DNA of 64,000 bases, from assembly GCF_018977255.1 (NCBI RefSeq), contig NW_024704742.1, positions 434,001 to 498,000 of the forward strand. Direction: 5' to 3'. Position 1 is the first letter of the stretch. Each line of letters starts with the position of its first letter. This stretch comes from Callorhinchus milii. Lineage: Eukaryota. The position numbers were made by a program, and so were the translations under genes. The notes below the pieces were generated by a model, which was given only the letters and a program-made list of their open reading frames with translations, searched no databases and was not told the DNA's origin. Positions 811 to 38,821 of the stretch are shown one piece after another.

Positions 811-3800
811 GTAAGTTGCAGTTCTTAAGAAAGTCCCGGGTGATGCAGATTGCTGCAGTTGAATGCCATTTTTGTTGGCAATGGTTTCCTTTTTTTCCTG
901 AAAAAGATTATGGCAATGCATTTTGCTTCCTAAAACAACAAAATCTTGGATTTATATAGCGCTCTACATGGGGGGTGGCCACTTGGACGCTTAATTAATG
1001 AAACTGGTTCAATATTTGATAATGTGGAAGGGAACGAAATTTATAAACGTTCGTTGAATCCTGAGAATAGTTTGGGATATTTAACTCTTTACTGATTGAC
1101 AATGCAGTGTTTTCACAATTGGTGAAGAAATTCTAGCTTTCTCCCAATGTCAGCCTGGCTCAGTTTGGTGAAATTAGCCCGACACAAGCGTAGAGTGGAT
1201 GAGCTGAGTATCATTACAAATCTCTTCATTACAGCACTATTTATTCACATTTAAACTGCTGTTCGTTTTGAATTAGATGGACAACGAGTGGGTTGAAAAG
1301 CCAAGGTCGATTGTCAGTGGGGAGCAACAGAGACCGAGAAATCTCAATGTCTGTTGGTTTGGGAAGGTCACAACTAGATTCCAAAGGTGGTGTGGTTGGT
1401 GGCACCATAGATGTGAACACATTGGAGATGGTTGGTAAGTTTGGTTCCTCAAATCACGTATGCCAACAAAATATATAGTCACTACACATTACAGCATATC
1501 CTGTGAAGCGCTCTGATACATCCTCCCCACGTGCAACGGTGAGATCGCTGTACACAATCTTCAACTAATTACTGGGAATAAACCTCTGTGTGTTCTGTTG
1601 CATTAATTTTCCAATTTACCCAATTTTATATTATACACGAAAAGTGTGGGATAAGCACCAAAATAAATCTTTACAAAAGGGTGTGGCATGTGTTGTGTTG
1701 GAGCGGCATTTCTGCAAGTCAGTGTGACGTATCTGCAGGATGTGACATTTAAAAATCCTTTATTATCCTGGCGCTTATTATTGTGCCTTTCCCATCGGGA
1801 GAATTCCACAATGCCCTTCATAGGATGTACTGTAAAGTGTAGTCATTCCATATTGCAGGAGAACACTTTCTTGAATACGTTTTTGGCATTTTCCATGTGA
1901 AAGTTTTTGCTATTAATCGTTCCTCACGTCCAATCATAACTCTTACTCTTTGCAGTACACATCTCGGAACACCCCAATCACCAACCCAGTCACAAAATCC
2001 AGATCACACTGGGCTCCACTGATGCTCGAGTGGATTATATGGGATCCAGTATTCTGATGGGAATTTTCAGCAATGCAGATCTTCAGCTGCAAGATGAGTG
2101 GAAAGTTCATCTTTATAATAGTGTCGACTCAAACTTGACTGAAAAAAGGTATTTAGAAATCCTATTCTCATAATCTTATTTTCATTACTTGCTACAAGAT
2201 TGAATAAATATTTCACTACTTAGATGTTTTTTTCAGTTATTTGTTGTCTGGTAAAAATATTGTATACAGTATAATTGCATTGCCATATTGTATAACGTTT
2301 ATGAATTTTACTGTAAAATATCTATTACAATATGGCCTTAAAGGAGCAGCTCTGCCATTGTCATTTTAAAGAATCGTTGTGTCTTCCTTCCTGCTACCTG
2401 ATCTTTAATTAACTGGCTACTCATCTCGTTGATATGGGATGTTCATTAATCCAGATTAATGTGAATGTGTGCCTGTATAAAAACATTCACTTTCGTTTCC
2501 AAATCTTAATTCAGACCTTTATTTTTACTGAAAGACGCAATTGCAGATGCAAATATGAAAACATTTTTGAAGAATGGTAATAAAACTTTGTTTTTCCTTG
2601 TTAAGTGATTTGTTTTCTCTTTCGCCTTCCAGCGAAATCTTTGTTCACGGAGATCTGCAATGGGACATCTTCCAGGTCATGATCTCTCGATCAACCACCC
2701 CAGATCTGATTAAAATTGGATTGAAACTGCAGGAATTTTTCACACAGCAATTTGATACCAGCAAACGAGTCCTGGCTACCTGGGGACCAGTGCTATACAT
2801 ACCCCCAAAAACACCAGTGATTAATGTGGAGCGGAGTTCCAATGAGCACTGTGAGAGTTTACACGTTACATTTTCCTTGAGAGAAATTTGCCTTGAGATG
2901 ATGGAAACTCTTGATTGATCCTTTACTTGTTTGTCTTTTTCCTTTTTCTCTCGTTCGAAGTACTGGGTGCTGCCCATCATCGCCACTGGCCAGAAGTGTT
3001 AAAGGTGATCGCTGGCTGCCACATCTCCTTGTTTCAGATACCGTTGCCTGAAGACGCAGTACAGCTGGGTGGATCTATGAGCCTGCATGGCAATCACATG
3101 ACTCTTGCCTGTTTTCACGGACCCAATTTCCGCTCAAAATCGTGGGCTTTGTTCCACCTTGAAGAGCCCAACATTGCTTTCTGGACTGAGGCTCAGAAAA
3201 TCTGGGAAGATGGTAAGTTTAATTTTAGAAACGTTTCCGAAAAGTGTTTTCAGTTGGAAAACTTATCAACCGGCAGCAAGTAAAGTGCATTCTTCACGAT
3301 TAACGTTCATGTCCTGTCGAGGCAAAGTCAAATTGGTGAAGACTGCAACATTTTCCATATCTGGGGAGAGAATTTCCAGCAGTCAGTAGAGTTCCTGACC
3401 TTACCAGTTTGCACTTAACAATGGGGGAAATCCCAACATTTCCCCTATTGTGGAGTCCTGCAGCTTTGTGGTTAGAGCACTTGCCACCCAAGCACTTCTG
3501 CTTACCAGCAGTAAGTAGGAAATGTTTGTCAGTCGATTGGCAGATTGCTTTTACGAGGGTAATTATTCCTTTAAAAAAGTTGCTCACTTCAATCCACAAC
3601 TGTTTGTGGGACGCTGCTGTGCACAATTGGCTGCTGCGTTTCGCCCACAAAATATACAATCAATTCACTTTGCAGTGTGTCTGTGAAGCGCTTTGGGACG
3701 TCCTCCCGACGTGAAAAGCGCTATATCAAATGCAAGGATTATTATTATTATATCCTGTGAAGCGCTTTGAGATGTCTCGAAGACATGATAAGGCGCTGTA

Positions 3801-6800
3801 TCAAATTCCCCTTCTTGTGAGTTTTCTTTTTAATTAATCTTACTGTCTATTGTTTCCTCATAATTTAATGCCCTTTAATCCCTCATGTTGTTGGGTGCTT
3901 CTCTGTTGTTTGTTGCATCCTTGATAGTCACTTGTTATAATGAATTCCAGACTTTCAACAAAACAAAAACAAATTACATTTGTATAGTGCCTTTCATGTC
4001 GGGAGGACGTCCAAGGCGCTAGAGTCTTCACTCAAACAAACCTTTTGAGTGAAGCCATTCCTGTGAAGCCATTTCGGATTGCTGATCACTCTTGTCTTCT
4101 AACCCATCTTAAATTTGGTACTTTTTATAGATCTGTAAATATCATTGTTTCATTTTGTTGATTTGATAGATAAGATAACACAAAGGAGTACATATTTCTG
4201 TGCTATTCATTTTTCCGCTGCTTAAAAATATTAAACAAATTGCAATAATACTTAGAAATAGAATAACTGTAATCTATTTTCAACTGTCTCCAGGGGCGAG
4301 TGACCACTCAACATACATTGTACAAACCCTGGACTTTCACTTGGGCCACAACACAATGGTTACAAAACCTGGAGGTGCCTTAGAAAGTCCAATGGCAACA
4401 ATCACCAAAATAACAAGACGTCGTCATGAAAATCCACCACATGGTGTTGCAAGTGTGCAGGAATGGTTCAACTATGTGACTGCCATGAGGAACGAAGGTA
4501 AAAAAAAATGCATGTTGTTGTTGTTATATTTTTAGCAAAACTAAAACATGAATTACCAAATATCAGAAGAGAAATGAAGCTGAGCATCAATAACTACTGT
4601 CACGACCTTTCCCCACAGAACTGAATCTTCTTCGAAACGTTGATTCTCACACTGCAGACAGTAAAACGTCTCTTAAGAGCTCCAACATGATGAGTGGGTT
4701 CCGAGGAACTGCCAGTTACAGCCATGAAACTGAGACAATCTTTGCCTTGCCAAGGATGCAGCTGGACTTTAAATCTATACACATGCAGGAACCTCAAGAA
4801 CCACTGCTGCAAGGTAGAGATCTGATTGAATTTACGAAACTTCAGCCCAGGAGGAGTCCGCTGTGTTTTGCTGTTGATGGTTTTTGCAGTGGCGCTATCT
4901 ACTGCCCTCACACTAAATCTTTATTGTTCGCAACCACAAGTCTGACATCTCGTGACCTCGGCTCCCACTATGCTCACCGTCTTACGCACTTTTATTTTTA
5001 AACGGGTTCGATTGTGAATCAAGTTTCAAAAAGTACAATCCAAAATGTGTTCCACCTCTTTTCCAGAGGGCGGTGTTTTGATATTTTTCCTCCGACCTTT
5101 CAGATCCCAACAGTAAGCCAAAGGTGGAGTGCAGTGTTGTGACCGAATTCACTGATCACATTTGTGTGACCATGGATGCTGAACTGATTATGTTCTTACA
5201 TGACCTTGTATCTGCTTATTTGAAAGAGAAAGAAAAAGGTTAGTCTTTTATTTTTTGTCAAATGTTCATTGCTAATTTTGTGACAGTTCTCACCCTTTCG
5301 GCCTCTGTTAATACTCACAGAAACTTGAGAAGTTCTTTGTTCTCTCAACATTTAATTTTTATTATTGTCTTGTCATAACTCTAGCTACAATCCACTACTG
5401 TTTGAGGGGACGCTGCTGTGCGCAATTGGCTGTTGGGTTTGGCCCACAAAACATACAGTCAATTCACTTTACAGTGTATCCTGTGAAATGCTTTATGAGA
5501 CGACCTCGAAGACCTGATAAAGCGCTGTATCAAAATCCAGGATTATTATTAACAGTGCAACAACAATCCACAATATAATTTTTCATAACACTAACCCCAA
5601 AATACATGTACCCTTGCTCTATCCAGAAGCAACCAACCACAAGGCTCCAAGGAAACTATTCTTATCCTCTCTTCAGCTCCTTCCCATTACCAGTGGACAA
5701 TCAATCTCTCATATCACCCATATGACCCCTACTAATATTTGGTGCCAAAGCAATCCTCTCGGGCGGCCAATGGCTGAGGGCCTCACTGCTTGCTCTCGCC
5801 TCTCACACTTCCTGCTGTCGCCCCTGCTACCTCTGTGCTAGCCATCCTCCCACCGTCAAAGCCCACTCTGCATCCACCGGGTTGTCGCCCCCTCCCCCTA
5901 CCCCAGTCTCCACACACGGGGAAAAGAGGGGCCGTGCGCACGTGAAGCAGAAAACAGACAATGTCTATCACAATTGTTGGTCTTTGATATGGAAATATCC
6001 AATGGGTTTTAATTTGGTGTATAGGTTCTCAGGTTAACTTATAACAGCGCTGGAAGGTTTTCATGTCCAGACACAATGCCTTTGTTGGGCTACAGATATA
6101 TTTACAGATAACACAATCCTTTTGAACATGGAAATAACATCATGGGACTGAATCATGATCTTTGGCTCCAAAACTAAAGCCAGATTTGGGCCAAGGGAAT
6201 TGTGTACTAAACTCTATTGCTTTTCAGTTTAGATATGATTAAAAATAATCAATTTAAAAGTATACTTTTAATTAATTGACTGTTTAACTGTGTTTATGAA
6301 TGTATAAAAAAACAAAAAAATTGCTTCTATTAAAAAATACCAATCCATTTGTAGCTATTTTCCCTCCTCGAGTTCTTGCCATTCGCCCCGGCCAGAAAAG
6401 TCCCATTACAGTTCACGATGACAGTTCCACAGACAAAGACAAGGAAGATGTGATCTACACAACTGTGGACTGGAGAGAGTTTGTTTGCAATACCTGGCAT
6501 CTGGAACCCACCTTAAGGTTAGCATCTAAATTCAGAATTGTCTCGTTCAATTGATCGTATGGAAACTTTGACAAACATTAACATCATTGGGAATTCTTCT
6601 CTCAAAAGATCCACATCCAAAGCTGCTTAAAGATTGTGAAGAGTGTTCAGATTTCAATAAAGGTATAGAGTAAACTGCTGATAACTCGTCAGGCCAAGGG
6701 AGAAGGACTCAGCAACTAGGTATCTGGAGTGGTGGGCTGGGTAAAGCTCCCCTAGGCCACAAGGGGGCACGGTGACTGCTGTGGGTGTTGATGTTCAGAT

Positions 6801-7939
6801 GAATGGCAGAGACCCATGTGGTGGCCTCCTAGTCTAACCTGTTATCTGAAGTAACTACTGAACTCACAAGAAATTCTGGAATGTGGCTAGTTACGTGTTA
6901 AGTGAAGTGACAAGCAAAGCGGAGGGAACCCTTACTCACACTTTGCTCGGGAAGTGGCTGGGATATTTTGACAGTGTGGAACTTAAATGGTAGTGAGAAG
7001 ATAAGCCACGACCTTGATATCAGGAGTTGACTGTATCTAGTTTTTACAAACTAGATCTTTAAGAGTTACCGTTTTTGTTAAGGCTACTTCAGTCCTCAGG
7101 AAATAAAATATCTCTTTTATATCTCCTGCCTGATAATTCTTCATTAATGTTGTGACAGATTCTTGAATGATTCTAAGGGTGTTTTATAGTCTGGAAATTT
7201 AATTTCCTCCCATCAGTTGTCTGGCACAATTGGTCGCATTCTTGCCTTTGAGTCAGAAGGTGGTAGATTCAAGCCCCATGACAGGTCTTTGGACTCAGTG
7301 TAGGCTGACCGTCCATCACTGAGCTGGGGGAGTGTTGCTGTCCTTCAGATGAGACATTAAACCAAAGTCTTGATGTTAAAGGTTCAATGGCACAATTTGA
7401 AAAGAGAAGGGAGTTTTCTCCTGGTGTCCTGGCTAACAATCCCCCACATAAAATGTGTCATTCATACCCGTTTGTAGGAAACTGATATGTGCAAATTGGC
7501 TGTTGCATTCACCTACAAAATACACAGTCACTACACTTTACTTCACATTTTGTGAAGAGCTTTGAAAGGTTGTGGTAGTGGCAACCTTTAATCCAAATGC
7601 ATAAATTATTAGGACTAACTGTAAAGGACACACTGGTTCTTGTGAACCAATTTCTAACAAAAAACTCTTTAACAGTAAAATGACCCGTTATTTGGTAATC
7701 TGTGTTTTTTTTCCAGGTTAATTTCTTGGACAGGAAGGAAGATTGACCCAGTAGGAGTGGACTACATTCTTCAAAAACTGGGCTTTCATCATGCCAGAAT
7801 CACTATTCCCAAGTGGGTCCAGCGTGGGGTCATGGATCCACTTGATAAGGTTCTCTCCGTTCTTATTAAAAAACTCGGCGTAGCACTGCAGGATGAAAAA
7901 GAGAGGAAAGGAAAGGACAAGGAAGAACATCCGAAATAG
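657..7939 (+). CDS. BLTP1: BLTP1/KIAA1109 (bridge-like lipid transfer protein 1), 3' portion: last 10 coding exons; gene starts upstream of window
   Basis: Exons 657-810, 1277-1434, 1956-2148, 2633-2850, 2961-3212, 4294-4497, 4619-4813, 5104-5238, 6355-6517 and 7717-7939 all have AG/GT boundaries and join in frame. The product ...[43 protein letters not shown]...HHRHWP...[20 protein letters not shown]...[35 protein letters not shown]...[10 protein letters not shown] matches the recalled vertebrate KIAA1109 C-terminus. Confidence 0.96.
1277..1434 (+). CDS. BLTP1: BLTP1 coding exon ([15 protein letters not shown]...LEMV)
   Basis: aattag / gtaagt boundaries; overlaps ORF 1293..1478. Confidence 0.93.
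1956..2148 (+). CDS. BLTP1: BLTP1 coding exon ([20 protein letters not shown]...DEWKVHLY...)
   Basis: tttgcag / gtattt boundaries; manual translation. Confidence 0.92.
2633..2850 (+). CDS. BLTP1: BLTP1 coding exon ([25 protein letters not shown]...)
   Basis: ttccag / gtgaga boundaries; within ORF 2574..2918. Confidence 0.92.
2961..3212 (+). CDS. BLTP1: BLTP1 coding exon ([10 protein letters not shown]...AQKIWED)
   Basis: cgaag / gtaagt boundaries; within ORF 2915..3283. Confidence 0.92.
3451..3806 (+). mobile_element. tRNA-derived SINE (long subfamily, internally deleted, duplicated tail)
   Basis: ggagtcctgcagc...gtggttagagcac head; shared body and tail; second partial tail 3752-3806. Confidence 0.75.
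4294..4497 (+). CDS. BLTP1: BLTP1 coding exon ([18 protein letters not shown]...AMRNE)
   Basis: ctccag / gtaaaa boundaries; within ORF 4200..4535. Confidence 0.92.
4619..4813 (+). CDS. BLTP1: BLTP1 coding exon (LNLLRNVD...[19 protein letters not shown]...LLQ)
   Basis: ccacag / gtagag boundaries. Confidence 0.92.
5104..5238 (+). CDS. BLTP1: BLTP1 coding exon ([44 protein letters not shown])
   Basis: tttcag / gttagt boundaries; manual translation. Confidence 0.92.
6355..6517 (+). CDS. BLTP1: BLTP1 coding exon ([16 protein letters not shown]...WHLEPTLR)
   Basis: ttgtag / gttagc boundaries; within ORF 6300..6554. Confidence 0.92.
7215..7570 (+). mobile_element. Deu-domain SINE (SacSINE1/AmnSINE1-like), degraded
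   Basis: tRNA-like head plus ccttcagatgagacattaaacc...atggcac...gtgtcctggc core. Confidence 0.7.
7717..7939 (+). CDS. BLTP1: BLTP1 terminal coding exon ([22 protein letters not shown]...EEHPK*)
   Basis: ttccag acceptor; TAG at 7937-7939. Confidence 0.94.
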
Positions 7940-10039: not shown

Positions 10040-10475
10040 CCAACACCCACATCGGGATACCCCCCAACACCCCCCACACATCCCCCACATACCCCCACAC
10101 CACACCCCAACACCACACCCCTACACCACCCCCCAACACCCCCCACACCCCCCAACACCCCCCACACACCCCCCAACACCCCCAACACCCCCCACACCCC
10201 CCAACACCCCCCAACACACCCCCCAACACCCCAACACCCCCCACACACCCCAACACACCCCAACACCACACCCCAACACCACACCCCAACACCCCCCACA
10301 CCCCAACACCCCCCACACCCCCACACACCCCAACACCACACCCCTACACCACACCCCAACAGCCCCCCCCCCCCCCGGGAATACCCCCCCCCCCAGGGAC
10401 CCCCACCCCCTCCAGGGAACACCCCCCCCACCCCCACCCACACCCACACCAGGGTCCCCCCCCCCCCCCCCCCCG
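10040..10475. repeat. C/A-rich low-complexity tract (CCCCAACAC/CCCCACAC-like units plus poly-C runs)
   Basis: Directly visible; source of the spurious Pro/His/Thr and Gly/Val/Trp ORFs in the track. Confidence 0.9.
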
Positions 10476-10537
10476 CTTGTTCGGGGGCCGGTGCGGGTGT
10501 ACTGAGCGCTGACTGTACCGGTTGCCTTTGGTGCAGG

Positions 10538-10712
10538 ATGTCCGGGGATGGCGCCTGGCGTAGGGGCTCCGGGGAGCCGAGCTTCGCTCAGATTCTGAAG
10601 AAGAACATCCCTCCGAAGCCGCCGGCGCCGACGCTGAGCGTGACCTTCACCCCCCAGGCCGGGGCCGCGGAGGAGTCAGACTCCGGGGTAGCCAGAGTCA
10701 TTCAGCTTTCGG
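10538..10712 (+). CDS. ADAD1: ADAD1 coding exon 1 (MSGDGAW...[10 protein letters not shown]...IQLS)
   Basis: ATG at 10538; gtacgt donor at 10713. Confidence 0.85.
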
Positions 10713-13700
10713 GTACGTTCGGAGCGGTATGTGTCCGGCCGTTCCTTCTCACCGAGCGACCGGTTCCCGCGGCGCTCCCTTCGCTGCTTCACTGTCCCGC
10801 GTTTCAAGCTGCGCGGGCGGCCCCGATTCCGACTGAGCCAGGCAACAGCGTCCGAACGCAGCAGCTGTCCACTCTCCGAAGCTTCGTCCCTCGCATCGAT
10901 TGGGAGAAACGATCCACGACGCAGAAGCGCTCCTTCGTTTCCCGGCAGAGAAGTGGGAATAACACCGCTCCTGTAAATACATGTCCCGTTGATCTCCCCG
11001 TGAGCCACATTGGGACGGAACGGCTCGGCGTGCGAGTTGGGTGTGGAGTGGATCCCCGACCATGTTTCTCCCCTATCAGTCGCACGTGGGTGGATTTGCT
11101 GATGTGGCATCAGTTCCGGGCGATTAATTTGAGAGGATCGTGTATTTGAAGAAACCCGATCTGGATATCGTTTGACAACGGATTTTATTTCTGTACCGAG
11201 CGACTCTCTCGCTGGTTGAAACTCCGCTTGGTGTTCCCTCGTGTTGAGGGTGATGCTGTATTCTGTACCCGGGTGGGGGTCGGGGTCGGGGGGGGAGATG
11301 GCTTTATGTGGCACGGGATTGGCGTAACCTCAGAATTGACGATCAAACCCTGGCGTTTGATCCGACGCCTGATCACCTCGTCGAGACGTCTGAAAGCGCT
11401 TCACAGGAAACACTGTAAAGTGAATTGACTGGATTTTGTGGGTGAAACGTGTCAGCCGGTCGCGCACGGCAGTGTCCCCACAGTCTGCTGCCTTGCATGG
11501 TATAGTTTTCTGTTGCCTGCCTGGGTCCTGCTCCTGCAGGTTATTAGCAATCTTGGTCAATAAGTTTTCTCTGCAAGGTTGTGGGTTCAAGCCCCACGTT
11601 GGGACTTGGAATCCACGTGGTCCATACTGACACTCCACCGCAGGGCTCGGGATGTGCTGTATCGTTAAACCAAGGTCCTGCCTGTCTGCCTGTTCAGGTG
11701 GACTTTAATGATCCCCTCGGCACGATGAAAAGAGAAGGGAGTTTCTCTCTGCCGGTGTCCTGGCCAACAACCCCTCCCAAACAGAACTGATCACACACTC
11801 CATGGCTGTTCCAGCGCCTTGGGACGTCGTCCCGACATGAAAGGCGCTACGCAAATGTAATCTTGTTGTCGTCGTCGTATTTGTTGTTGTGTTGTTTGTG
11901 GAACACTGTTGTGTGCGAATTGGCTATCGCGTTCACCCACAAAATGCACGCAGTCACACCACTTCACAGTGGCCTGTGAAGCGCTTTGAGTCATCTCAAC
12001 AATGTGTTAAGGTTTGAATTCAAGGACTATCACACAGTAATTTGGTAGAATAATTTTCCTTTTAATAATGAATGACTCATCTCTCTTTTTAATAGGTCAC
12101 TTGGGTTTTGAAAATGCCGTTGAGTCTCCCTAATTGCTTTTAGCCTAGAATACTGATCTACTTATTATTATTATTAATACTGATCCAAGTTATTGTCACG
12201 GAAAGCTCTAGTCAAGTCCCCGTGTAAGCACGTCACAAAATGATGTACATTTTTTCCTTCATCCAGTTGTTTCTATTGGAGTTGGTGACTCTAGTCAGGA
12301 ACCTCCAAGAGAAACAACTAGACTGAAAAAAACCCTAAAGATTATAGTAATAAAGCTACTCTTAGTATCTGCGTGACTTTATTACTAAAATATTAGAGTC
12401 TGAGACAAAAATATTAAAACTGCATGCTCTGATTTTCCTCAGAAATTGGGGAACCTATTCTCTGTGCCTGGGCATGTGCTTTTCTTCCCCTGTAACCGGC
12501 CATATAATAATCCTTGCATTTGATATAGCACCTTGTTATCAGGTCTTCGAGACGTCTCAAAGCGCTTCACAGAATGTACTGTAAAGAGAATTGACTGTAT
12601 ATTGTATGAACATATGCTCTTCATTTTTCCACTACTGCCCTGTGCCTGTGTCACCCTTCCCCCATGCCCAACACCTTTCTTCTCCACACCCCCACCCCCC
12701 GATTGCCAGGGTAAGTCCTCCTCCCTCTTAATTTTACTTGGATTTTCTTTCTTTATTGTTATGCCATTTAGAATTGTGTATATTTTTGCAGGGCAATATC
12801 CAAAGTCGCAGTTTGTTGAAAATGCGAAACCGCTCCCGAACACTTCACTGCCTCCCAAGAAGGTGCCTCGAGAGTTTATTGATAAATGCCGTCGTGGTGA
12901 GATCAACCCTGTTTCAGCTTTGCATCAGTTCGCACAAATGCTGCGAATGCAACTCATTTTGAAAGAAACTATAGCGACAGGCGAGTGGAATTTATTTTCT
13001 CTGTCGTATATTTACCTCCTTAGAAACCCCTCTTTGTAATCCCGCCTTCGCCAAGTTCTGACACGTGCGGTAACCCACCACCGTGCTTAAGAGTATCCAA
13101 ACCAGACAGAGTTCCACATGTGAAATTTTCCCCGTGTCTGGAATGACACTCTCCCAAGAAAGATGCATTCTGCTTACCTAAGAGTATTAGATGCAGTTTG
13201 GCGAGAGCCGTGGTTTGGGAGCTCCAGAGTAGGTGTTTGGGTACTGGGGTTTAACCAGCTAAGGCTGCATAGCTTACCAGAGTGAGCGCTGTTTGGCAAG
13301 TTTCCTGCTTGCTTGTTCAGCTAAGACCACCCTACCCTTTAGGGCCTTGGCTTGCAATGTTAATGGGACCTGAGTGGAAAGAACCTCTGTCCCTAGTGAC
13401 TGATCTGCCCCTCTCAAGTCCTGCTGAAGAACCAGGCTCGTGGCTCTGTCATCGTTAGTGCCTTGGACCACTCTGGGCTCGCCTCGCAGAACAGATACAA
13501 ATAGATTATTTCTCTATTTTTCCAGGGAATGTTTTCGGACAGTATTTTGCCTTTTGTGCAGTGGTTGATGGCATTGAGTACAAAACTGGAATGGGTCAAA
13601 ATAAAAAAGAAGCAAAGGCAAATGCTGCACAGTTAGCTCTCGATGAATTGCTGGACACCGAACTGATCAAGACTCCAAGTAAGTCTTTTATTTTTTTAAA

Positions 13701-16700
13701 AAATAAAGTACTGGTTTAGTGATGAAGTACACTCCTTGCTCTCTGGCAGAATTTCTACTATTCTGTCATTAAAAACATAAACTACTCCTGTATAGGTTAA
13801 GCAGCAAGGAATCTAACTTCAAAATTAGGCTATGGTGAGCAAACAAGCATATTTTTGGGGGGATGGCAGTGCTTTTGGAATTTTTGGGGATCTCAATCCT
13901 ATCTCTGAAGAACTGAGGACATAATCTCTCTCTTGTCTACAAATCCCTTCACGCCCTGTCACCTCCCAATCTTTCAGACCCTTTGCCTCCGCTGCCTGGC
14001 TCTGGGCTCCTGCTCGTCCCGCTACACCATCGATGGACGTGCTTTCAGTTACTACACCCCAAATCTTTGGAACTCTCTCCCTCAATTCATCCGCCATGCC
14101 CCCTCCTTCCGCTCTTTTAGATCACGACTGATCCCCACCCCACCCCCACCCCCCCCCGGCTCAGCATCAGGTTGCGCCACCTTTAAGCGTTCAGACACTG
14201 CCGCACTTGGAGGGCGCTGTATAAGTAAGTTGTTGTTGCTGTTGGGATGCTTTTAAGATGATCATTTCATTGTTTCACATCAATATGTTGAACATTTAAT
14301 TTCAGTTATCGGTCCAACTCCGATCCCTGCTGAACGAAAGGTCGTTCCTGCACCAAGTCTCCCTTCAAGGAATCAACCTTCAAAGTTAGGCTATGGTGAG
14401 CAAGAAGATTTGGATTTGTTTGGCATCTCAACCCCATCTCTATGAAGAACTAAAGACATAACCCAGAAAATGGGGGGTGTAAACTCAGTAAATAATAATA
14501 ATCCTTGCATTTGATTGTACAGCCTTATCACATAAAGGCGTCTCAAAGCGCTTCACAAGTTTGTGAAGTGTAGTGAGTGCGTATTTGCGCACAGCACTGC
14601 CCCACAAAACAGCAATGAAGTGAATGACAAGTTTTATCGGGGACCTGTTGACCACAACACCAAAAGAAACTCCCTTCTCTTTCGAGTAGTGCAGATGCTT
14701 CCGATTCACGTCTCATCCTAAAATGAACCGTGTTAAATTTGTCTTGACAATTGCTACCACACAGTGTGACGACGATGATAATACTAATAATGCATCACAT
14801 TTAATGAGGTGCTTTTCATATCAGGAGAATGTCTGAAAGCACTTAAGAAAATACACTGAAGTGTAGTAACTATTTTGTGGGCGAACACGGCAGCCAATTT
14901 GCACACACCAACATACCGCAAACAGTCGTGGAGTGAATGGCTAGTTTTTATTACTGTTACTATAACCTGACTCTGAGACGAGAATGCTACCAACTGAGCT
15001 CGGCTGACGCACAGCTCATCATTTGGTCAGGTTTTTCCTTCTGGACTTTAGTTACTATAACCTTGTGTTATGTTTGCCCATTTAGCAACACTGTGGATGA
15101 ATTCGTTGATAAATAGCCATTTCTCCTTTTTAAATGTTTTGTTTTTTTTTCTTGTAGAAGGAAGGAATTCTTATTACATGGCGATTTCTGTTGCCTGTAA
15201 GGAGGTGTTCAGCAAGCTGACTGCTAACCACCAGGAACACCAAAATTGTGGGAATTCCCTGGCTGCTTTTGTAGTTGAAAAATGTGAGTAGAAAATTGCG
15301 AAAACTACATTTTTAAGATCAATGTGATCATTCAGTTATATAATGTTCTGCTCATTACTGGTAAATAAGGAGAAATCTTAGCCCTGCAATTTTCCTATAT
15401 ATTTACAAAAAAAGTTTGTATTTTCTCAAGCAAAGGAATTAGCGAAATCACTGCAATAGATTTGTGTTCTGCATCACGTATGGTGCAGTCGTCGATAGCT
15501 TCTGGCCGATAGTGGAGGCCAATTGCTCTTTACTCATTTTGCCTCAAGTGCTTTAGAAAATCAGGCTTTAAATTGCCAGGAAAATTCAAGCGACCATTTA
15601 AAATGTTTGTTTTAGTTGGACAGCCCTGTGAAGTTGTTGCAGTTGGAACTGGGGAGATAAGTTACAATGGCCCTTCTTATCCCGAAGGCCGAATAGTGCA
15701 CGATTCCCACGCTGTGGTGACTGCGAGGCGCTCACTGTTGAGGTAAAGTGTCTTCTACATTAGCAAACCAGATGAGTTTTAATGAAAAGTGTAAAAGCTG
15801 CAGTTTTTCATTTTAACGACCAGCTACAAACATTTCCAAATGTACTTTTGACTCGGTTGTTATCCATATCCCCGTACCCTGGGCCGATATAAAAGTGCGG
15901 CTGCAGTTTTGTCAAGGAAGCAAACACCAGAATCCGCGACAAACCTGCAAAAAAAAAATGAAGCTTCCTCAGCGCCCGGGCCTCTCGTGCTGCTGCCGGC
16001 TGTTTACTCCACGCACCCACTGGGATGAGTGGCTCCTCCAGACGCTCATGCCTGGTGCGCAATTTTCGGCAAACATTACCGCAATTTCCCATTGACCCCG
16101 GCCATAGCTAAGGTAGATTTCTATAACTGGAAAATCTTCCGTTATGTATTGTACCAAAGGTCCTGTTCTCAATTTGTCGCCTGCTTGCTTTGCCCACCAA
16201 CAGTGGGGGCTTGTGCTCTTGTTGGCATTGAAATTTACCAACTGTTTTGGAAGATGCCTGCTGTGCAGCGTTTCAAGCTGCGGTTCATTACTTGGGGAAA
16301 ATAAGTTATAATCTTATAATAATCATGATCTCTGTCCGGCAAGGTGTCTGGCCGAGGTAGGTGGAGTGTCAGCTTTACTATCGCTGGCGGGCGGGCACAG
16401 CACATGTGCTCTGAAGACCCACGTAACCATCTCTGAGCTGCGTTACTCTTCTACAAGACTTTGGAACCATAGAAACAACGTTAACGGGTTGTTTCATATG
16501 GTTTCTGATCTGGCATTACTTAATATGATTCCTAATGTGCAGACCAGTCTGCCAGCAATTGATGCTTGTATTTTTTAATGAGGAGTAATGGTGTCTATGC
16601 AGTTAATCCACTTTACAATATGTTGATATCAAATGTAAGAATTATTATTATATATCTGATGTGCACTTTTATACTTTCCAGGTATCTTTACAGACACCTT

Positions 16701-19035
16701 CTTATGTTTTATAACAAAAATCCTGAAGTGGTGAAGCAGTCTATTTTTTGCACCAACTCTGAAGGAAAAGTTCTTACCCTCAAGGATCGGACTAACTTTC
16801 ACCTTTATCTGAATCAACTACCAAAAGGTGCTGCTCAGATCAAACGGCTGTAAGTGGGAGTAATTCTAGGCTTTGTGTATGATACATGATGTGAAAGGAT
16901 TATTTAACTCTGGCATTAGTCCCATAACATTGTTTGGATGAGACAGCAAACCAAGGTCTCTCTGCTTTTTGAGATGCACATTAAAAACAATTACAAAATA
17001 GTCTTAACATGCTGCTATCTGAAAAGAGAAGCGAGTTTCTCGCAGTGTTACTGGTCAATAATCCCCCAGATTTATTAAAAAAAGTCATTCCTGTTAGTAG
17101 GACGTTGTGTCACCAAAAATAGTTGCTACACTTTAGAGAAAACTTTATGAAATGCTTTGAGATGTTTCGACCCAAACCCTTGATTCCTCATTAGAAATTA
17201 AATATTTTACAGTTCAGTGTTTTTGATTTAACAAAACTGTTTCCCACTGTGATAAAATAAATCAAACGTAGAATCAAGTTGCTTTAACACCGAATGTCTT
17301 TCTTTACACAGACATCTGGCCCCTCACTCAATATCTGCGTTTCACACAAATAAAGAAATGGAGCTTCATATTGTTTTGGATGGCAACGTGTACTCCGTTA
17401 GCCACTGTAGTTCTGAAGTAACTGCAACCAGAGTATGTAGTATGTCTGCCAGTGACAAACTCACCCGTTGGGAAGTACTTGGAGTCCAAGGTGCTCTTCT
17501 CAGTCATTTCATTGAACCCATCTACATCAGCAGCATCCTGATTGGTATGTGATCTAATATCTCAAGCTGTGGAAAAAAAATCATTATGTTCCCAAATATT
17601 TTATCAAACAGCCACTTGTATTTACAATAGCAGCTTTCTTGTGGAATAATGGCGACATAGAGGGTAGATCTTAAAACTAAATACTCTGCCAGGACTGTAC
17701 CTTTCAGTCTGGACTGAATGGAAATAGGAGAGGCTGTCTAATGGCGGTTTGTGATGATTGATGATTTGTGATGATTGATGATTTGTGATGATTGATGATT
17801 TGTGATGATTGATGATTTGTGATGATTGATGATTTGTGATGCTCGTTCAACACATGATTGCACTCTGGCCAATATACAACTTACAGATCTGCTCTTATCA
17901 TGTGTTTTACTTAAATATTTGTATTGAAAAATGGAATTTAAAAATACCCATTCAAAAACTTGCAAAATCACTTTGTAACTTTCATTTGATCTTCTAGGTG
18001 ATGTAAATTGCATTGACACACGAGGAATGGATATAGCGATTAAACAGCGTGTAGATGACTCACTAACTTCAAAGCTCCCTAACTTGTACATTGTCAACAA
18101 ACCTCATATTTGCCTGACAGAAGTTGCGTATCCCTCACAGGCAAATACGGTCAATAAAATGCTCAGTCTGAATTGGTCTCAGTCAGATGGTTTATTAGAA
18201 ATTGTGAATGGTGTGACTGGAAAGATTGCTGAAAGGTAAGGTGCTCTCAACATGTAATATTGTCTCACTTACCGTTGTCTTTGTATTCCATCTATTTATC
18301 CTACAATATCACTCCATTCAGAATGTGAGAATCTTCACAAGCTATCAACTGTTGACCTATTCACATCAAAATTCTGCGTAACTTCTGGACTTTGTATTCT
18401 GCTGATCATTAAATACAGTAGTTGTGGTGGATAAGTGTCCATAATGAAGTATTTTAACCTCTAGCTACACCGACCTTTATTATAATAGCAAATAATGATT
18501 CTTACGTTTGTATTAGAAGGAAATTATATAAATCCTGGGACCTGATAATTAAGACCCTTTATCACTGATACTGAAGCTATTTAATCCCTTTGCTCAGCCT
18601 TTCGGTCTTTCAGTATTGTAATTCTAAACAGATGTGTGGATGAAGTCATTATTATCCATTTCAAAAAAGCGATTTGTTTTTTGCTTTACAGTTCACCATT
18701 TAAAAGTGGCGCCTCCATGACTAGTCGTTTATGCAAAGCTGCCATGCTGAGTCGCTTCTATCTTGTTGCTAAAGAAGCGAATCGAGAAGATTTGTCCACA
18801 GTTGCAACGTATCATGTAGCAAAGGTAAAGCTCACTTCCTGCTTAACTCTACACTGAAAATGCTGCCCAATTAAAATGTCTAATCAGTTTTTAAAATGCA
18901 ATTTGTTTTCATTCCTTCCAGATGATGGCAAAATCGTATCAAGAAGGAAAAACATTGCTGAAATCATCCTTGGAACAGCATGGATTTGGTATTTGGCTAG
19001 TAAAGAATCCAAATGATGAACAGTTCCATATGTGA
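10538..19035 (+). CDS. ADAD1: ADAD1/TENR (adenosine deaminase domain-containing 1; dsRBD plus inactive ADAR-type deaminase), 11 coding exons, 581 aa
   Basis: Exons 10538-10712, 12792-12980, 13526-13678, 14306-14395, 15158-15283, 15616-15742, 16682-16849, 17312-17544, 17998-18235, 18692-18824 and 18922-19035 sum to 1746 nt in frame. Motifs [70 protein letters not shown] and SRLCKAAM match ADAD1. It lies directly downstream of KIAA1109 as in other vertebrates. Confidence 0.95.
11575..12005 (+). mobile_element. Deu-domain SINE with inserted L2-type tail
   Basis: ggttgtgggttcaagcccc head; cgttaaaccaaggtcctgcctg...cctgttcaggtggac...gtgtcctggccaaca core. Confidence 0.65.
12792..12980 (+). CDS. ADAD1: ADAD1 coding exon 2 (dsRBD start; GC donor)
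   Basis: ttgcag acceptor; AG|gcgagt donor required to keep frame. Confidence 0.9.
13050..13490 (+). repeat. Unclassified interspersed repeat (related copies at 25885-26520 +, 48630-48870 +, 57830-57905 -)
   Basis: Shared motifs ccg(t/c)gcttaagagtatccaaac, gagagcc...ggg.actcca.ag, ttaaccagct, gactg.tctgcc...aagtcctgc. Confidence 0.75.
13526..13678 (+). CDS. ADAD1: ADAD1 coding exon 3 ([15 protein letters not shown]...[10 protein letters not shown])
   Basis: ttccag / gtaagt; manual translation. Confidence 0.92.
13930..14245 (+). mobile_element. L2 LINE 3' fragment
   Basis: [19 protein letters not shown] motif; tail gagggcgctgtataagtaagttgttg. Confidence 0.75.
14306..14395 (+). CDS. ADAD1: ADAD1 coding exon 4 (IGPTPIPAE...KLGY)
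   Basis: tttcag / gtgagc; 90 nt, phase 1-1; corresponds to the mammalian GPPPFPAEP linker. Confidence 0.8.
15158..15283 (+). CDS. ADAD1: ADAD1 coding exon 5 (GRNSYY...SLAAFVVEK)
   Basis: ttgtag / gtgagt. Confidence 0.9.
15616..15742 (+). CDS. ADAD1: ADAD1 coding exon 6 (EVVAVGTG...[14 protein letters not shown])
   Basis: ttttag / gtaaag; manual translation. Confidence 0.92.
16682..16849 (+). CDS. ADAD1: ADAD1 coding exon 7 ([10 protein letters not shown]...[10 protein letters not shown])
   Basis: ttccag / gtaagt. Confidence 0.92.
17312..17544 (+). CDS. ADAD1: ADAD1 coding exon 8 (...[35 protein letters not shown])
   Basis: acacag / gtatgt. Confidence 0.92.
17748..17841. repeat. 17-bp minisatellite (TTTGTGATGATTGATGA) x ~5.5 in ADAD1 intron
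   Basis: Perfect tandem copies visible. Confidence 0.92.
17998..18235 (+). CDS. ADAD1: ADAD1 coding exon 9 (DVNCIDTRG...SLNWSQ...GKIAE)
   Basis: ttctag / gtaagg. Confidence 0.92.
18692..18824 (+). CDS. ADAD1: ADAD1 coding exon 10 ([18 protein letters not shown]...TYHVAK)
   Basis: ttacag / gtaaag. Confidence 0.92.
18922..19035 (+). CDS. ADAD1: ADAD1 terminal coding exon ([10 protein letters not shown]...[19 protein letters not shown])
   Basis: ttccag acceptor; TGA at 19033-19035. Confidence 0.92.
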   Translation: MMAKSYQEGKTLLKSSLEQHGFGIWLVKNPNDEQFHM

Positions 19036-30660: not shown

Positions 30661-31634
30661 AAATTCACTTTACAGTGAATTCTGTGAAGCTCTTTGAGAC
30701 GTCTCGAAGATGTCTATTTGATGTAACCATCTCAAAGACATCCATTATTATTATGGTCGAGGCTGAAACTGAGCACAACTCAGTGCCGGGGGAACGCTGA
30801 ATTGTCAACGTGGTGGCCTTCGGATGAGCTGATAAACCGAAGTCCCGTTCGCCTGTTCGGGTGGCTAACAAAGATCCCATGGCACTTGTTTTGAAAAGGG
30901 AAAAGCATTTCTCATTATGTGCCAACAATCTTCAGAGAAAATATGGATCATTCACTTCACAGTGAATGTTTGCGGGACTTTGCGGTACATGAACTGGCTG
31001 CCGTGTTAGCTCCCAAATACACATGTATGTTAACCCTTCAATCGGATATCCGTTTTAGTTCCATATCCACTCCAGATCTTTTTGAGTTTGAATAGTCAAG
31101 GATTTTGATAATCTACATACACACATATATATAATCTACATCTGACAAACGCCGATTATTTTGTCCAACCATCTGTCTTAACCACCAGGACAAAAAAATG
31201 AACCATATGTCCACAACAACAACAACAACAAATTATATTTGAATTGCACCTTTCAGACTGGGAGGACATCCCTACTTTGTAGTACATTTCTATGTCCTAA
31301 ATGACAGTATTATTATTTTTAACTTACAAAGAATTCAAAATAGCCATGAGTAAAGCATTGCTGCAACCTGAGCTACACTGATGTTAATTCTTATTTTAAT
31401 GATATAGACCTGTTACTCTTCTGTCATGTGGAAGGTGCCAGTTATGTGTTGCTTTTTTGTGACGTAGCCTACATGATTTCGGATAAGAAATGACTAATTT
31501 TCCTGTAATTTCTCTGTCAATTTGATACTTTATGTCTGTAACATGGTCATATTATAATTAACCATAAAACCATACATAGGTGGAGCAGCAGTGTATTTGC
31601 AGAACCCGTCTAGCTTAATACTTGACATGTTTTG

Positions 31635-33819: not shown

Positions 33820-34920
33820 ACAGAATAGTGCTAAAAGGATGTTTTTTTTCCCAGATAGTAGAAGGTAATTTGTGATATATCGCAAGGGTCTATGCCAGGG
33901 CCTCTCCTTTTTCCAATATATATTAATGGCCTTGACTTAGATGTAGGAGGCACAGTATCAACATTTGTAGATAATATCAAGCTGGGAAAGATATGGAATA
34001 GTGAGGAGGATGGCAAGAGACTGCTTAAACAGATTAGCACATGGGCACAGCAGATCCCACATCCCATAAACAATTGTGGATTGAGTGAATGAAATTATTA
34101 TTATTTTTGTGTGGGAGGGATTATTACTCCAAGATAGACAGTGGCAGATGAAGTTTAATGAAGCAAAATGTGAGGCGATCCATCTTGGTAACAAAAAACA
34201 CGTGAGAAGTGAATTCATATTAAATGGCAAGATCTTGCAATGAACAAAGCGACTTGGAAACACTGTGAAAAAAGCTAATGGTAGCTTTGGGGTTTATATA
34301 CAGGGGCATAGAATACAATTTAAAGCCATAATGCTAATAATAATAATGATCCTTGCATTTAATGTTGATTATCACATCACATTATCTTATCACATTGTTG
34401 AGACTTCTCGAAGAGCTTCACAGAATATACTGTAAAGTGAATTTGGTGAAACTTGGCAGCCAATTGTGCAGAGCAGTGTCCCACAAACAGTCGTGGGTTG
34501 AGTGATCAAATTATTATTATCTGTTTTAATTGTTCTTTTAAAGCGATTATTACCCCCAGAAAGCGATCTGCCAATCGACTAACAACTGGGTTCCTACTTA
34601 CTGATGAGTAAACAGACGTGTGGAGTATGGAAAGTGAGGAAACTTTTCATCGGAACAGAGAAGGTTGAGTGGGAACCTGATAGAAGTGTACAACATTATG
34701 ATGGGTTAGGACAGGGTGACTAGGGAATAGCTATTAGGGCAGTCAGTGACTAAGGGACATAGGTGTAGGATAGTCAGCAGTTCAGTGAAAGGAGAGCTTA
34801 GGGGAAAAAAATTCCCACAGAGAGTTATTGGGATGTGGAATGCTCTGCCGAGTAAGGTGGTAGAGGCAGAGTTCATGGTGGGCTTCAAGAAGTGAGTAGA
34901 CAGGTTAGGGTTAGGGGTAG
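33820..34920 (+). mobile_element. Degraded CR1 LINE fragments interrupted by SINE insertions (SINE on - at ~34345-34632)
   Basis: QGSMPGPLLFPIYINGLD...FVDNIKLG, WQMKFNEAKC, and 3' end ttcccacagagagttattgggatgtggaatgctctgcc. Confidence 0.75.
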
Positions 34921-35324: not shown

Positions 35325-35751
35325 TTTATTTGTGTTTATACCTTGAAGCAGAATACAGTTAATATTATATAAGACAGCAGCAACTGTAATAACTTAAACA
35401 AAGGTGTTGATATAAATATAGGAAATTAAATACTGTATATAGTACTTTCTTCTCGTACATTAACTGATCCTCTTGAGAAATTAATAAATATAGTCATCAC
35501 ATACCCATATACAATTAGTTTCTAAGATACAGTGTCAATTTGTTAGTTGTATAACAAAAGTGTATTCAGACTTGTTAAACTAGTCTAGTGAAGCATAGCA
35601 GCCCGTAGGGCTTACATTTAAGACCCGTTGCGATTCATTATCTTTATGAACGCAAAACAATAAATTAAGTATTTAAATATTTCAACGTGAAACTAATTTG
35701 AGATTCGACTACAGCCGTGCATAAATTATATTTTACTTTGTTCCATTAACA
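35325..35751 (-). promoter_or_regulatory. IL2 3'UTR with AU-rich elements and polyA signal
   Basis: At least six ATTTA pentamers on - strand (plus-strand TAAAT at 35413, 35427, 35485, 35661, 35674, 35722); AATAAA at 35330-35325. Confidence 0.75.
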
Positions 35752-35892
35752 CTAAACATATGGTTTGCTTTTCATTCCCGTGCTGCTCACATGTTTCTGT
35801 GCTGTTTTGTAGTTTCTCTGTAAGAACACCTTCAGTGCCAGCAAGAATTCAGGGATCTTCTTCTGTTTGAATTCACACCTTTGGCTTCCTTC
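35752..35892 (-). CDS. IL2: IL2 exon 4 (CD loop + helix D + C-terminal tail), 46 codons + TAG
   Basis: attttacag acceptor; TAG at 35754-35752. Confidence 0.88.
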   Translation of the reverse strand, partial: EGSQRCEFKQKKIPEFLLALKVFLQRNYKTAQKHVSSTGMKSKPYV

Positions 35893-38052
35893 CTGTAAAA
35901 TACAACACCTGTTATACTTTGTTTATAGGGGGGTTGATACCCTTATAGTACATAAGGTGACCCTGTGCTTTGCCACCTGATGTTAATGTTATTTGTGGGT
36001 GGGGGGGTCGGGGAGATTTTTAAGTGGACAAATTTCTATGTTCAAGAAGGTTAAATGTATTAATAAGCTGGTCAATGCATATTCATAAAGACTTGGATCT
36101 TAGTTGAAATCAGATACTGTCTTTGAAGAGCAGTACAGTACTATATTTGTGGGTGCAATCTATGTTGCAGTATGAAACCCAAAGCTTTTGCACTTACCAC
36201 TGTCTGGAATGTTTTCATGTTTGAGATTATGATGCTTGCAGGCTTTTTGCAGCTTGGAAGTTTGCATTTATGCTTTAAAGTTGTAAGTCCTTCCTCAAAG
36301 CAAATCAGCGAACAGTTGGGCTAGAGAAGAAAAAAAATAACAAAGTTAGATGACATATTCTGCAGAATAATGACAGCTGCAAACATTTTCAAGGAATTCA
36401 TTTTATTAAAATTTGGTATATACTTCAAATAATACATTTTACTTTGTTTAATCATTGGGAATATAGAAATTATTTTGCAATTTTGAGGTCTACTCTTATC
36501 GCTTCCTAAACCAGTTTCAGAAAACGTTTAAACCCAAATATCTAAATTGAGAGATTTAAATTTAAACGCACCTCTGTTTACCGAGAAGTGAGTAGGAACC
36601 CAGTTGTCAGTCCATTGGCAGATCGCTATCTGGGAGTACTAATCCCTCCCCCACAAAAATAATAATAATTTCATCCCTCAATCCACAATTGTTTGTGGGA
36701 CGTGGGATCTGCTGTGCGCAATTGGCTGTGCTTTCGCCCACAAAATACAATCCACCTTTACAGTATATTCTGTTAAGCGCCTTGAGACGTCTCAACGGCA
36801 CGATAAGGCATTATATCAAATGCACGGATCATTTTTATATCGCAATGTAACATTACGGAACAAGTTCAAGCACAGGATGTTTAACTATTAATGTTCTAAA
36901 ATTATACTATACACTTGGACTAAAATGCAAAATGTGATTTCCTAAAGAGTCGTCTCTTAGGAGATAATCACAGCCTAGGCTGACACTCCAGTATAGTACT
37001 GGAAAATATTGTTGGAGATATAGGTTACCGTGACAGGAATTTCCAACCCCTTTTCTTTCTAAATTATCCTGTTTGGGCCAGATAAATAATTGCACCTGAT
37101 TGTTTTGCAATTTTCTAATACATTATGGAATTGCTTTCTTTTGCAATATTCAGTCATTCATATAGTCGTACCCTATACAATGCATCTTCACACTCCTAAG
37201 GAATATTTCACCAAGTTTTGCTTCTCTTTATAAGTAATCATAATCCTTGCATTTGACTTAGCGCCTTATCACATCATCGAGACATCTCAAAGCGTTTCCC
37301 ACGATCGACTGTAAAAATGTTATGACTGGGTGCGTTTTGTAGATGAGTGCATCAGCCAAGTTGCACACAAACAGCTTACAAACTGCCATGGACTTTCGTT
37401 TGAGAGAAACTCCCTTCTCTTTCGAATAATGCCATAGAATCTTTAGCGTTCGCCTGAACAGGCAAACAGGACCTCAGTTTAACGTCCCCTCCGAATGACG
37501 GCAACTCTGCCAGTGCAGCAAACCCCAGGAGTGTCAGCACAGATTATATGAGTTCCAAGTCCCGAACCTACAACCTTCTGACTCAGAGGCAAGTGCTACC
37601 AACTGTGCAAGGTTTGACGCACTTTATATAATACTGTGAGATAAGACTATGAGTTCAGTTGTTTTTAAATCCTGCTGACACTAATGTTTTTTTTAACTGG
37701 AAGAGTAATTCTAAAATAGTGCTAAAAACGTTCAAATAGATGCTTACCTCCAGGATCACAGGAGTGCGTATTAAGTCTTGCGAATTCATGAGATATTGAT
37801 CGTTCTGGAATAAAACAAAGTGATTCATTGTTAGTAGGTGCAAAAAATAAATCTGTAGCAGTAAATATATCTTAACGTACGTATTTACATATGTCAAGAT
37901 AAGCTTAAAACCCCTCTTACCTTCAGAAGTGTTTGTAGCTCCTTGGTCTTCAAGATCATTTCACGAAGCAAATATTTAAATTTGGTACCATCGTCACCTA
38001 TCGCTGTGGTGAACGTCAGCACAGTGAAGAATAAGCACAGTAACTTAGGCAT
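35752..38052 (-). CDS. IL2: Interleukin-2 (IL-2/15/21 family short-chain four-helix cytokine), 4 exons, 150 aa precursor
   Basis: Exons 38052-37921, 37804-37748, 36320-36198 and 35892-35752 have canonical GT-AG introns, all phase 0. Protein: MPKLLCLFFTVLTFTTAIGDDGTKFKYLLREMILKTKELQTLLK/NDQYLMNSQDLIRTPVILE/PNCSLICFEEGLTTLKHKCKLPSCKKPASIIISNMKTFQTV/EGSQRCEFKQKKIPEFLLALKVFLQRNYKTAQKHVSSTGMKSKPYV*. It has a signal peptide and the motifs LICFEEGL, IISNM and CE...EFL...FLQ. It lies tail-to-tail with ADAD1 and has an IL2-type promoter and AU-rich 3'UTR. Confidence 0.85.
36198..36320 (-). CDS. IL2: IL2 exon 3 (helices B and C), 41 codons
   Basis: ttttcttctctag acceptor; GTG|gtaagt donor. Confidence 0.88.
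36570..36830 (+). mobile_element. 5'-truncated SINE in IL2 intron 2
   Basis: Long-subfamily body and tail. Confidence 0.75.
37240..37620 (-). mobile_element. Deu-domain SINE in IL2 intron 2
   Basis: cctgaacaggc...ggacctcagtttaacgtc...tccgaa.gacggca...caaccttctgactcagaggc. Confidence 0.78.
37748..37804 (-). CDS. IL2: IL2 exon 2 (AB loop), 19 codons
   Basis: ttttattccag acceptor; GAG|gtaagc donor. Confidence 0.88.
37921..38052 (-). CDS. IL2: IL2 exon 1 (signal peptide + helix A), 44 codons
   Basis: aatcATG start; AAG|gtaaga donor. Confidence 0.88.
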
Positions 38053-38109
38053 GATTGAGACAGTGACTGCTCTGTGGACTATTCTGATAGATTTCAGAGT
38101 GTAACGGTG

Positions 38110-38360
38110 AAGGGATTTTATACCCTTTGTGGAGGTAGGGGGGAAATCGTAGGAGTTTTAATAGTCATTAATTTAGCAACCTGTGTCTCTCGTGAAGGAT
38201 GAATATTTTCCTCTTTGATGACTATTTTGGAAATTTTTCAAATTTGGCAATTCTAAACTTCATGATGGTAAAATCCCTTTGCTCAAACCTGCGTGTAAAC
38301 CACCAAAACCAATGGAGGTTGTGCTTATGATGCATGCCTACAATTTTCCTTCCTTTGAGA
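38110..38360 (-). promoter_or_regulatory. IL2 proximal promoter: TATA, NFAT, AP-1-like, CD28RE-like, NF-kB, distal NFAT
   Basis: On - strand: TATAAAA 38122-38116; AGAGGAAAA 38214-38206; ATAGTCA 38225-38219; GAAAAATTTCC 38239-38229; GGGATTTTACC 38277-38267; GGAAGGAAAATTG ~38353-38341. Confidence 0.8.
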
Positions 38361-38510
38361 AAAAAAACCCTTTCAAAATGCTTAAGAGATGCAATCACTG
38401 AGAGAAAAAGAGATAAGCTTTTAAAAAAAAAGAGTTTGTACTTGTTTGTTCTCTAAATAACTAGAGAAGTATTTCCTGTTATCAAATGATCTGTTTGCTA
38501 TATCATCTTT

Positions 38511-38821
38511 GGAGTCCTGTAGCTCAGTGGTTAGAGCACTCGCTTTGCAAACGAGAGACCTGAGTTCAATTCCAGGCAGAGGGCGAAACCTTGGGCAAGT
38601 TTCCTTACTCCACACAGAGCCTAATAATAATCCCTATCATTAAAACAAAACAATAATAAATTGGTCATTTTCAATCCACGACTGTTTGTGGGACATTGCT
38701 GTGCGCAATTGGCTGCCGCGTTCACCCACAAATATACAGTCAATTCACTTTACAGTGTGTTCTGTGAAGCGTTTTGGGACGTCCTCCCGACGTGAAAAGC
38801 GCTATATCAAATGCAAGGATT

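Follow-up and report, generated by a model that had tools for sequence, protein, structure and literature searches.

In the 64,000-nucleotide stretch of DNA analysed here (the window), a four-exon gene lying next to ADAD1 is preceded on the minus strand by a TATA box and a series of motifs reminiscent of the mammalian IL2 promoter, which raises the question of how much of this promoter has been inherited in common with mammals and how much merely resembles it. A preliminary description of this DNA had proposed that the whole IL2 promoter architecture is conserved with mammals, including a composite of CD28RE, AP-1 and NFAT sites that is alignable nearly base for base. The reading that we prefer, and to which we assign a probability of roughly 0.7, is that these motifs belong to the proximal promoter of a chimaera's IL2 orthologue, the animal being Callorhinchus milii or a very close relative, and that the 34-base promoter core shares an ancestral element with the mammalian CD28-response region and the adjacent NFAT site; candidate factor binding, inducibility and CD28 dependence are properties that we infer for this core.

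All five promoter strings quoted in the preliminary description are present on the minus strand, from 38356 to 38116, and the features of the promoter, the gene and its neighbourhood are collected in Table 1. With the T of TATAAAA at 38122 set to zero, the strings lie at -234 to -219, -158 to -145, -117 to -84, -66 to -57 and -1, with the ATG at +70, which places the composite block some 85-115 nt upstream of the TATA box. The promoter region has a G+C content of 36% and no CpG island: it is an AT-rich, TATA-containing, non-CpG promoter. Candidate NFAT cores are frequent in it, with four GGAAA/TTTCC cores in 248 nt compared with a mean of 0.82 for the window, a count reached in 1.2% of the 1276 windows used for counting. 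A scan of the window for a TATA box combined with an ATG and a signal-peptide candidate returned this promoter as the only such candidate with upstream NFAT cores, with four in the 250 nt before its TATA box versus 0 or 1 at the three other candidates. The CAGGT motif occurs a second time, at 38291. Against a partial octamer pattern (ATGCA followed by A or T; six bases), the sole match is ATGCAT at 38335, beside the distal site; the proximal promoter holds no match to this six-base pattern, and in having no recognisable Oct octamer in its proximal part it differs from the mammalian promoter.

Table 1. Coordinates of the promoter elements, the downstream gene and the flanking genes in the window.
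Feature	Position	Strand	Remarks
Distal GGAA-rich NFAT-type string AAAGGAAGGAAAATTG	38356..38341	-	Core GGAAGGAAAA; without a recognisable AP-1 half
KappaB-like site AAAGGGATTTTACC	38280..38267	-	3' end 27 nt upstream of the 34-base composite
34-base composite block GAAAAATTTCCAAAATAGTCATCAAAGAGGAAAA	38239..38206	-	Top-scoring site of the window for the published CD28RR probe
Rel/NFAT-type site GAAAAATTTCC of the composite	38239..38229	-	Followed by spacer AAAAT
AP-1-like octamer AGTCATCA of the composite	38223..38216	-	3' of spacer AAAAT
NFAT-type decamer AAGAGGAAAA of the composite	38215..38206	-	Abuts AGTCATCA
E-box-containing string AGACACAGGT	38188..38179	-	CAGGT at 38183; generic motif
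TTTCC	38142..38146	-	Opposite-strand NFAT core; 19 nt before the TATA box
TATA box GTATAAAA	38123..38116	-	70 nt upstream of the ATG at 38052
tRNA-derived SINE	38510..38700		Upstream bound of the unique promoter; each of the four runs has a depth of 10^5-10^6
Last exons of BLTP1 (KIAA1109)	2571..7936	+	Six ORFs matching BLTP1_C profile positions 1467-1938 of 1938, E 1e-25 to 1e-57
ADAD1 (TENR) exons	13459..18854	+	dsrm and A_deamin domain matches
Coding exon 1	37921..38052	-	44 codons; hydrophobic signal peptide and first helix region; GT donor
Exon 2	37748..37804	-	19 codons; AG/GT splice sites
Exon 3	36198..36320	-	41 codons; joined to exon 4 in the X9 contig
Exon 4	35751..35892	-	46 codons and stop; stop at 35751-35753
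3' UTR	35325..35750	-	Six ATTTA pentamers; AATAAA signal at 35330..35325

The unique part of the promoter ends about 390 nt upstream of the TATA box, where it is cut off by the SINE at about 38510. In order to read copy number we relied on depth in public sequencing runs, whose DNA or RNA kinds are our guesses (none is recorded as RNA): depth over the promoter is 8-11 in the DNA-type run X1 versus 10^5-10^6 in the flanking SINE, so that the promoter is present as a single copy, and the possibility that the conserved block is part of a repeat was ruled out by this single-copy depth at the block. The RNA-like run X9 has a depth of 3 in the bin 38150-38263 and of 7.4 in 38378-38491, with none over exon 1; this depth could stem from transcription upstream, from stray DNA or from a contig of similar sequence. 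In run X1, a contig shows five differences from the window within the 116-nt intron 1 (37805-37920) and one at 38105, and none in the 404 nt from 38106 to 38509. The complete agreement over 38106-38509 is a weak hint, from this one contig, of constraint within the species.

The resemblance to the mammalian promoter was measured by local alignment of each probe against 2130 overlapping chunks (both strands of the 64-kb window) and against 2000 dinucleotide shuffles of the 300-nt promoter, and shuffled probes were used as well. The comparators were four short published probes and the 33-mer given in the preliminary description; among them, the CD28RR probe is the 26-mer TTTAAAGAAATTCCAAAGAGTCATCA, published as -147 to -163 (PMC3167847), the ARRE-2 probe is a 22-mer covering the human NFAT/AP-1 site from -286 to -265 (PMC10658084), and the kappaB probe is an NF-kappaB probe (PMC2194172) that contains the kappaB string of the preliminary description. 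Among the human strings given there, those for ARRE-2, CD28RR and the TATA region are in print (PMC3167847, PMC13125903, PMC10658084) and the kappaB string is printed with no gene attribution in the relevant passage of PMC2194172, whereas the extension that would form the human '-135' NFAT site and the AGACAGGTA string were not found in print in our literature search.

With the CD28RR 26-mer, the block scored 16 and ranked first among the 2130 chunks (next best 12), 22 of the 27 alignment columns being identical, and this score was reached by none of the 2000 dinucleotide shuffles and by none of 2000 probe shuffles. The 33-mer of the preliminary description gave a score of 22 (next best 13) with 29 of 34 columns identical, leaving three mismatches and two one-base gaps, and again no shuffle out of 2000 came up to it: the proposal of a composite alignable nearly base for base is borne out, far beyond chance. 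A different picture emerged for the other elements. The kappaB probe scored 11 at GGGATTTTACC (14/16 columns identical), which is tied within the top 7 of the 2130 chunks and was also attained by shuffled sequences (81 of 2000 with the dinucleotides shuffled, 22 of 2000 with the probe shuffled), so that its similarity appears marginal. The ARRE-2 22-mer scored 8, a value equalled in 330 of the 2130 chunks and in 1120 of the 2000 shuffles, and by this measure the similarity of the distal NFAT site to ARRE-2 is no better than chance: the GGAA-rich core aligns to the probe and the AP-1 half does not, with the GGAAAA core at about the expected distance, and an ARRE-2-type NFAT:AP-1 composite is not recognisable here by alignment to the published 22-mer. 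The distal site in this promoter thus differs from its mammalian counterpart both in the missing AP-1 half and in the lack of significant similarity. The E-box and the TATA box are short generic motifs. Deep conservation clearly beyond chance appears confined to the middle block, and the shuffled controls that the preliminary description had suggested uphold that block, leave the kappaB-like site marginal and fail to support the distal site; the claim of a conserved promoter architecture as a whole was therefore overstated.

The CD28 response region was reportedly defined by Shapiro et al. in 1997 as the CD28RE together with the NF-IL-2B AP-1 site. At the level of sequence, the block contains a non-consensus Rel site with an AP-1 site within a few bases, as in that region, and in addition an NFAT site that abuts the AP-1 site, as in the '-135' site, for which the human counterpart string is the one given in the preliminary description. 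The combined three-site pattern occurs once in the window, where 0 occurrences would be expected. Like its mammalian counterpart, which lies within about -300 to +1, the block stands upstream of the TATA box of a gene adjoining ADAD1, and the octamer and the decamer are identical in the comparison with the probe and the 33-mer. In case of the right-hand part of the block, CAAAGAGGAAAAT, the agreement with a generic NFAT/AP-1 probe is 13/13 and equal scores are obtained at three other places in the window, and this part accordingly mirrors the site preference of NFAT as much as descent; the argument for common descent of the block would draw on the overall arrangement together with the published 26-mer.

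The block also departs from the mammalian element. There are one-base indels on both sides of the AP-1-like octamer, and comparison of the Rel-type site with the published probe, read off the alignment, reveals a one-base insertion and an altered second half-site, whilst the GGAAA core is kept; on the other strand this site reads GGAAATTTTT, in which GGAAA is also an NFAT core. The AP-1 heptamer is further from the consensus than the human heptamer. Both the extra base with the changed second half of the Rel-type site and the less consensus-like AP-1 heptamer speak against the CD28 response having simply been carried over. The altered Rel-type site lends some weight to the alternative that this is indeed an orthologous IL2 promoter, with a block that is an NFAT/AP-1 element responsive to calcium plus MAPK only, the Rel/CD28-response function having been gained later in the mammalian CD28RE and control by co-stimulation not being ancestral. 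We consider this alternative unlikely. In its favour, the first site keeps the GGAAA shared with NFAT and alters precisely the second Rel half-site; moreover, the elephant shark possesses Rel and RelA proteins that both bind DNA, with comparable off-rates on a consensus motif, unlike in mammals, where the Rel/RelA difference arose after the divergence of cartilaginous fish (PMC12043515). Against it, the spacer and the flanks of the Rel-type site have been kept too, within the 22 of 27 columns shared with the CD28RR probe; putative CD28, CTLA-4 and B7 genes are annotated in the elephant shark (PMC6795676), and in the Nile tilapia T cells need CD3 plus CD28 for full activation, whilst the IL-2 promoter is made more active by NFAT1 together with c-Fos/c-Jun and by p65 (PMC10131875). 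The tilapia experiments relied on a 2-kb promoter in HEK293T cells, and the passages describing them map no elements; in the present promoter, the elements are resolved at the level of single bases and are known from sequence alone.

Returning to the preferred reading, in which the block is an inherited site for all three factor families, its most likely mode of action can be proposed by analogy with the mammalian system. On T-cell activation, NFAT activated by calcineurin, AP-1 induced through MAPK and a dimer of the Rel family would bind side by side on the 34-base block and would cooperate with the weaker kappaB-like site 27 nt upstream and with the further GGAAA cores; the outcome would be the switching on of a short-lived mRNA that carries AU-rich motifs in its 3' UTR. 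The further proposal that control of IL2 by TCR plus CD28 dates from the ancestor of jawed vertebrates is plausible, and as a statement about function it goes beyond what a sequence can show.

A second alternative holds that the resemblance arose by convergence or chance: promoters of T-cell activation genes gather GGAAA, AP-1-like and kappaB-like motifs in AT-rich DNA, and the block would then not descend from the mammalian element at all. Such an explanation gains from the fact that, of the five quoted motifs, three are either generic or no closer than chance would give, that an unrelated NFAT probe fits the NFAT part just as well, and that the comparison spans chimaera and mammals with no intermediate species; we nevertheless regard it as highly improbable. 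The scores of the 26-mer and the 33-mer stand apart both from all 2000 shuffles and from the next best site in 128 kb (both strands), which scores far lower, and the shared bases include those of a spacer that no factor consensus requires. The setting agrees as well: orientation and order of the block with respect to the kappaB-like site and the TATA box are the same as in human, and the distances are nearly so, the kappaB-like GGGATTT(T/C)ACC lying some 27 nt upstream of the block as it does in mammals.

In order to compare these distances, we placed the human TATA box near -30, a position that we take from counting on the fragment printed in PMC13125903. On this assumption, the distances to the TATA box are shorter than in the published human coordinates by about 17 nt for the CD28RR and by about 24 nt for the distal site, in agreement with the earlier estimate that spacings are some 20 nt shorter here than in human. 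The positions given for the IL-2 enhancer in PMC2119143 (NFAT, -279 to -263; AP-1, -160 to -150) fit this spacing. In the human minimal promoter (PMC13125903), a TTTCC lies 11 nt upstream of the TATA box, versus 19 nt here (counted by eye).

Pattern searches beyond the window gave no counterpart of the promoter: the strict pattern returned 0 stretches in metagenome contigs, and a looser one returned 45 stretches from metagenomes and 33 from prokaryote genomes, none of which resembles the promoter beyond the pattern itself. That these 78 stretches from the metagenome and genome collections share nothing more than the pattern speaks further against convergence. Among the best-ranked literature matches, none deals with the IL2 promoter of a cartilaginous fish, and for six strings taken from this promoter and protein no paper that prints them was found.

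The identity of the gene downstream of the block is indicated by its neighbourhood and structure. The window contains, in this order, the end of BLTP1, ADAD1 and the cytokine gene, which adjoins ADAD1 on the opposite strand. We take KIAA1109 to be BLTP1 and TENR to be ADAD1, and human IL2 to lie on the opposite strand likewise. The human cluster at 4q27 is written KIAA1109-TENR-IL2-IL21 in the literature, and IL2 and IL21 are described in a review as co-localised from cartilaginous fish to humans (PMC9465101). The block is thus located in the proximal promoter of a gene at the IL2 position of a BLTP1-ADAD1-IL2 neighbourhood, in accord with the IL2 setting claimed for it. One exon of ADAD1 is 100% identical to that of Callorhinchus milii over 80% of the query (a protein that both NCBI and UniRef name adenosine deaminase domain-containing protein 1), the next best ADAD1 matches for the same exon being sharks and rays at 81-91% identity: the animal, which had been taken for a shark, is instead a Callorhinchus-like chimaera. 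Beyond the promoter in the direction of higher coordinates, from 38700 to 64000, neither a crude scan for TATA box, ATG and signal peptide nor tblastn with the spliced protein detected an IL21-like or second cytokine gene, and IL21 may be situated outside the window or have been missed by these scans.

Two further observations concern the intervening DNA. The region 10000-12000, which separates the last BLTP1 exon from the earliest ADAD1 exon that can be recognised, has a G+C content of 0.60, compared with about 0.40 in the rest; both of its strands carry long open frames, none matching Pfam, and it is possibly a CpG-island promoter. In the interval from ADAD1 to the cytokine gene, ORF fragments with RVT_1 matches at 29592-30713 (minus strand) and 33862-34089 (plus strand) represent decayed LINE copies.

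The gene itself has coding parts of 132, 57, 123 and 139 bases, giving 150 codons from the ATG at 38052, and all of its introns are GT-AG and of phase 0. Four exons, three phase-0 introns, a signal peptide and a length of about 150 residues are the features looked for in an IL2 gene, and all of them were found. IL2 has four coding exons and IL21 five, and 3' UTRs bearing ATTTA motifs, of which the present gene has six, are typical of short-lived cytokine mRNAs. A contig from run X9, whose RNA kind is guessed, splices 36320..36197 to 35891..35790, in agreement with the predicted junction of exons 3 and 4; by simple arithmetic, the X9 depth in the bin 37694-37807 is roughly that expected from the 23 unlisted first letters of this contig, were these to fall on exon 2. 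Exon 1 has no cover in the RNA-like runs. Intron 2 contains repeats at 36554-36895 and 37124-37693 that are extremely abundant, with depths of up to 10^6 in all four runs. The tblastn search with the spliced protein revealed no second copy or paralogue of the gene in the window.

On position, strand and exon number the gene fits IL2, and it is very probably the IL2 orthologue. At the level of protein, the searches were weak tests, with single exons as the only queries: with E values of up to 10 allowed, exons 1, 3 and 4 searched singly gave no Pfam match, searches with exons 3 and 4 brought up no relative among the longer proteins of a 5.8-billion-sequence collection, even though Callorhinchus milii ADAD1 is present there at 100%, and exon 4 alone yielded no usable match in a protein atlas. 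It would seem that the public protein sets searched lack the product of this cytokine gene. Cytokine proteins evolve fast, which makes IL2 hard to find outside tetrapods, and a note on elephant-shark cytokine genes by Dijkstra in 2014 is said to report an IL-2 gene. In this gene, the promoter block is indeed easier to recognise than the encoded protein, as had been anticipated: exons 1, 3 and 4 lack a Pfam match and exons 3 and 4 a relative. The least probable of the alternatives, that the gene is another cytokine of the group (IL21 or an IL2-like duplicate) with an IL2-like promoter, can draw on this lack of a protein-level family match to single-exon queries and on the failure of the crude scan to locate IL21, and hence the IL2-IL21 order, in the window, and it is countered by the four coding exons (compared with five in IL21), by the place next to ADAD1 on the opposite strand, as for IL2 in the written cluster order, and by the lack of a paralogue in the window.

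Taking the gene as IL2 and the block as an element shared with mammals, the finding can be set beside what is known from other vertebrates. The chicken IL2 promoter was reportedly found by Kaiser and Mariani in 1999 to share the NFAT/AP-1, CD28RE, AP-1 and NFAT elements with mammals, which is said to have helped to identify a non-mammalian IL2. That comparison covers about 300 million years within the amniotes, whereas the present one reaches across the split between cartilaginous and bony vertebrates. The analysis extends the knowledge from chicken and from tilapia (PMC10131875) and introduces no new principle.

For the family, a promoter core that has been kept from chimaera to human would be an independent marker for finding IL2 orthologues. 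As a short, precisely defined element, the block lends itself to reporter and gel-shift work, and cDNAs for the Rel-homology regions of elephant-shark Rel and RelA have reportedly been cloned into expression vectors (PMC12043515). For the biology of these animals, the core argues that the integration of NFAT, AP-1 and Rel at IL2 is ancestral to the jawed vertebrates. If this is true, which we hold to be somewhat less likely than not, the two-signal logic of IL2 induction, in which antigen receptor and co-stimulation act together in a calcineurin-dependent manner, would have been wired in when adaptive immunity arose, and the block would rank with the oldest conserved cis-regulatory elements so far known for an immune effector gene.
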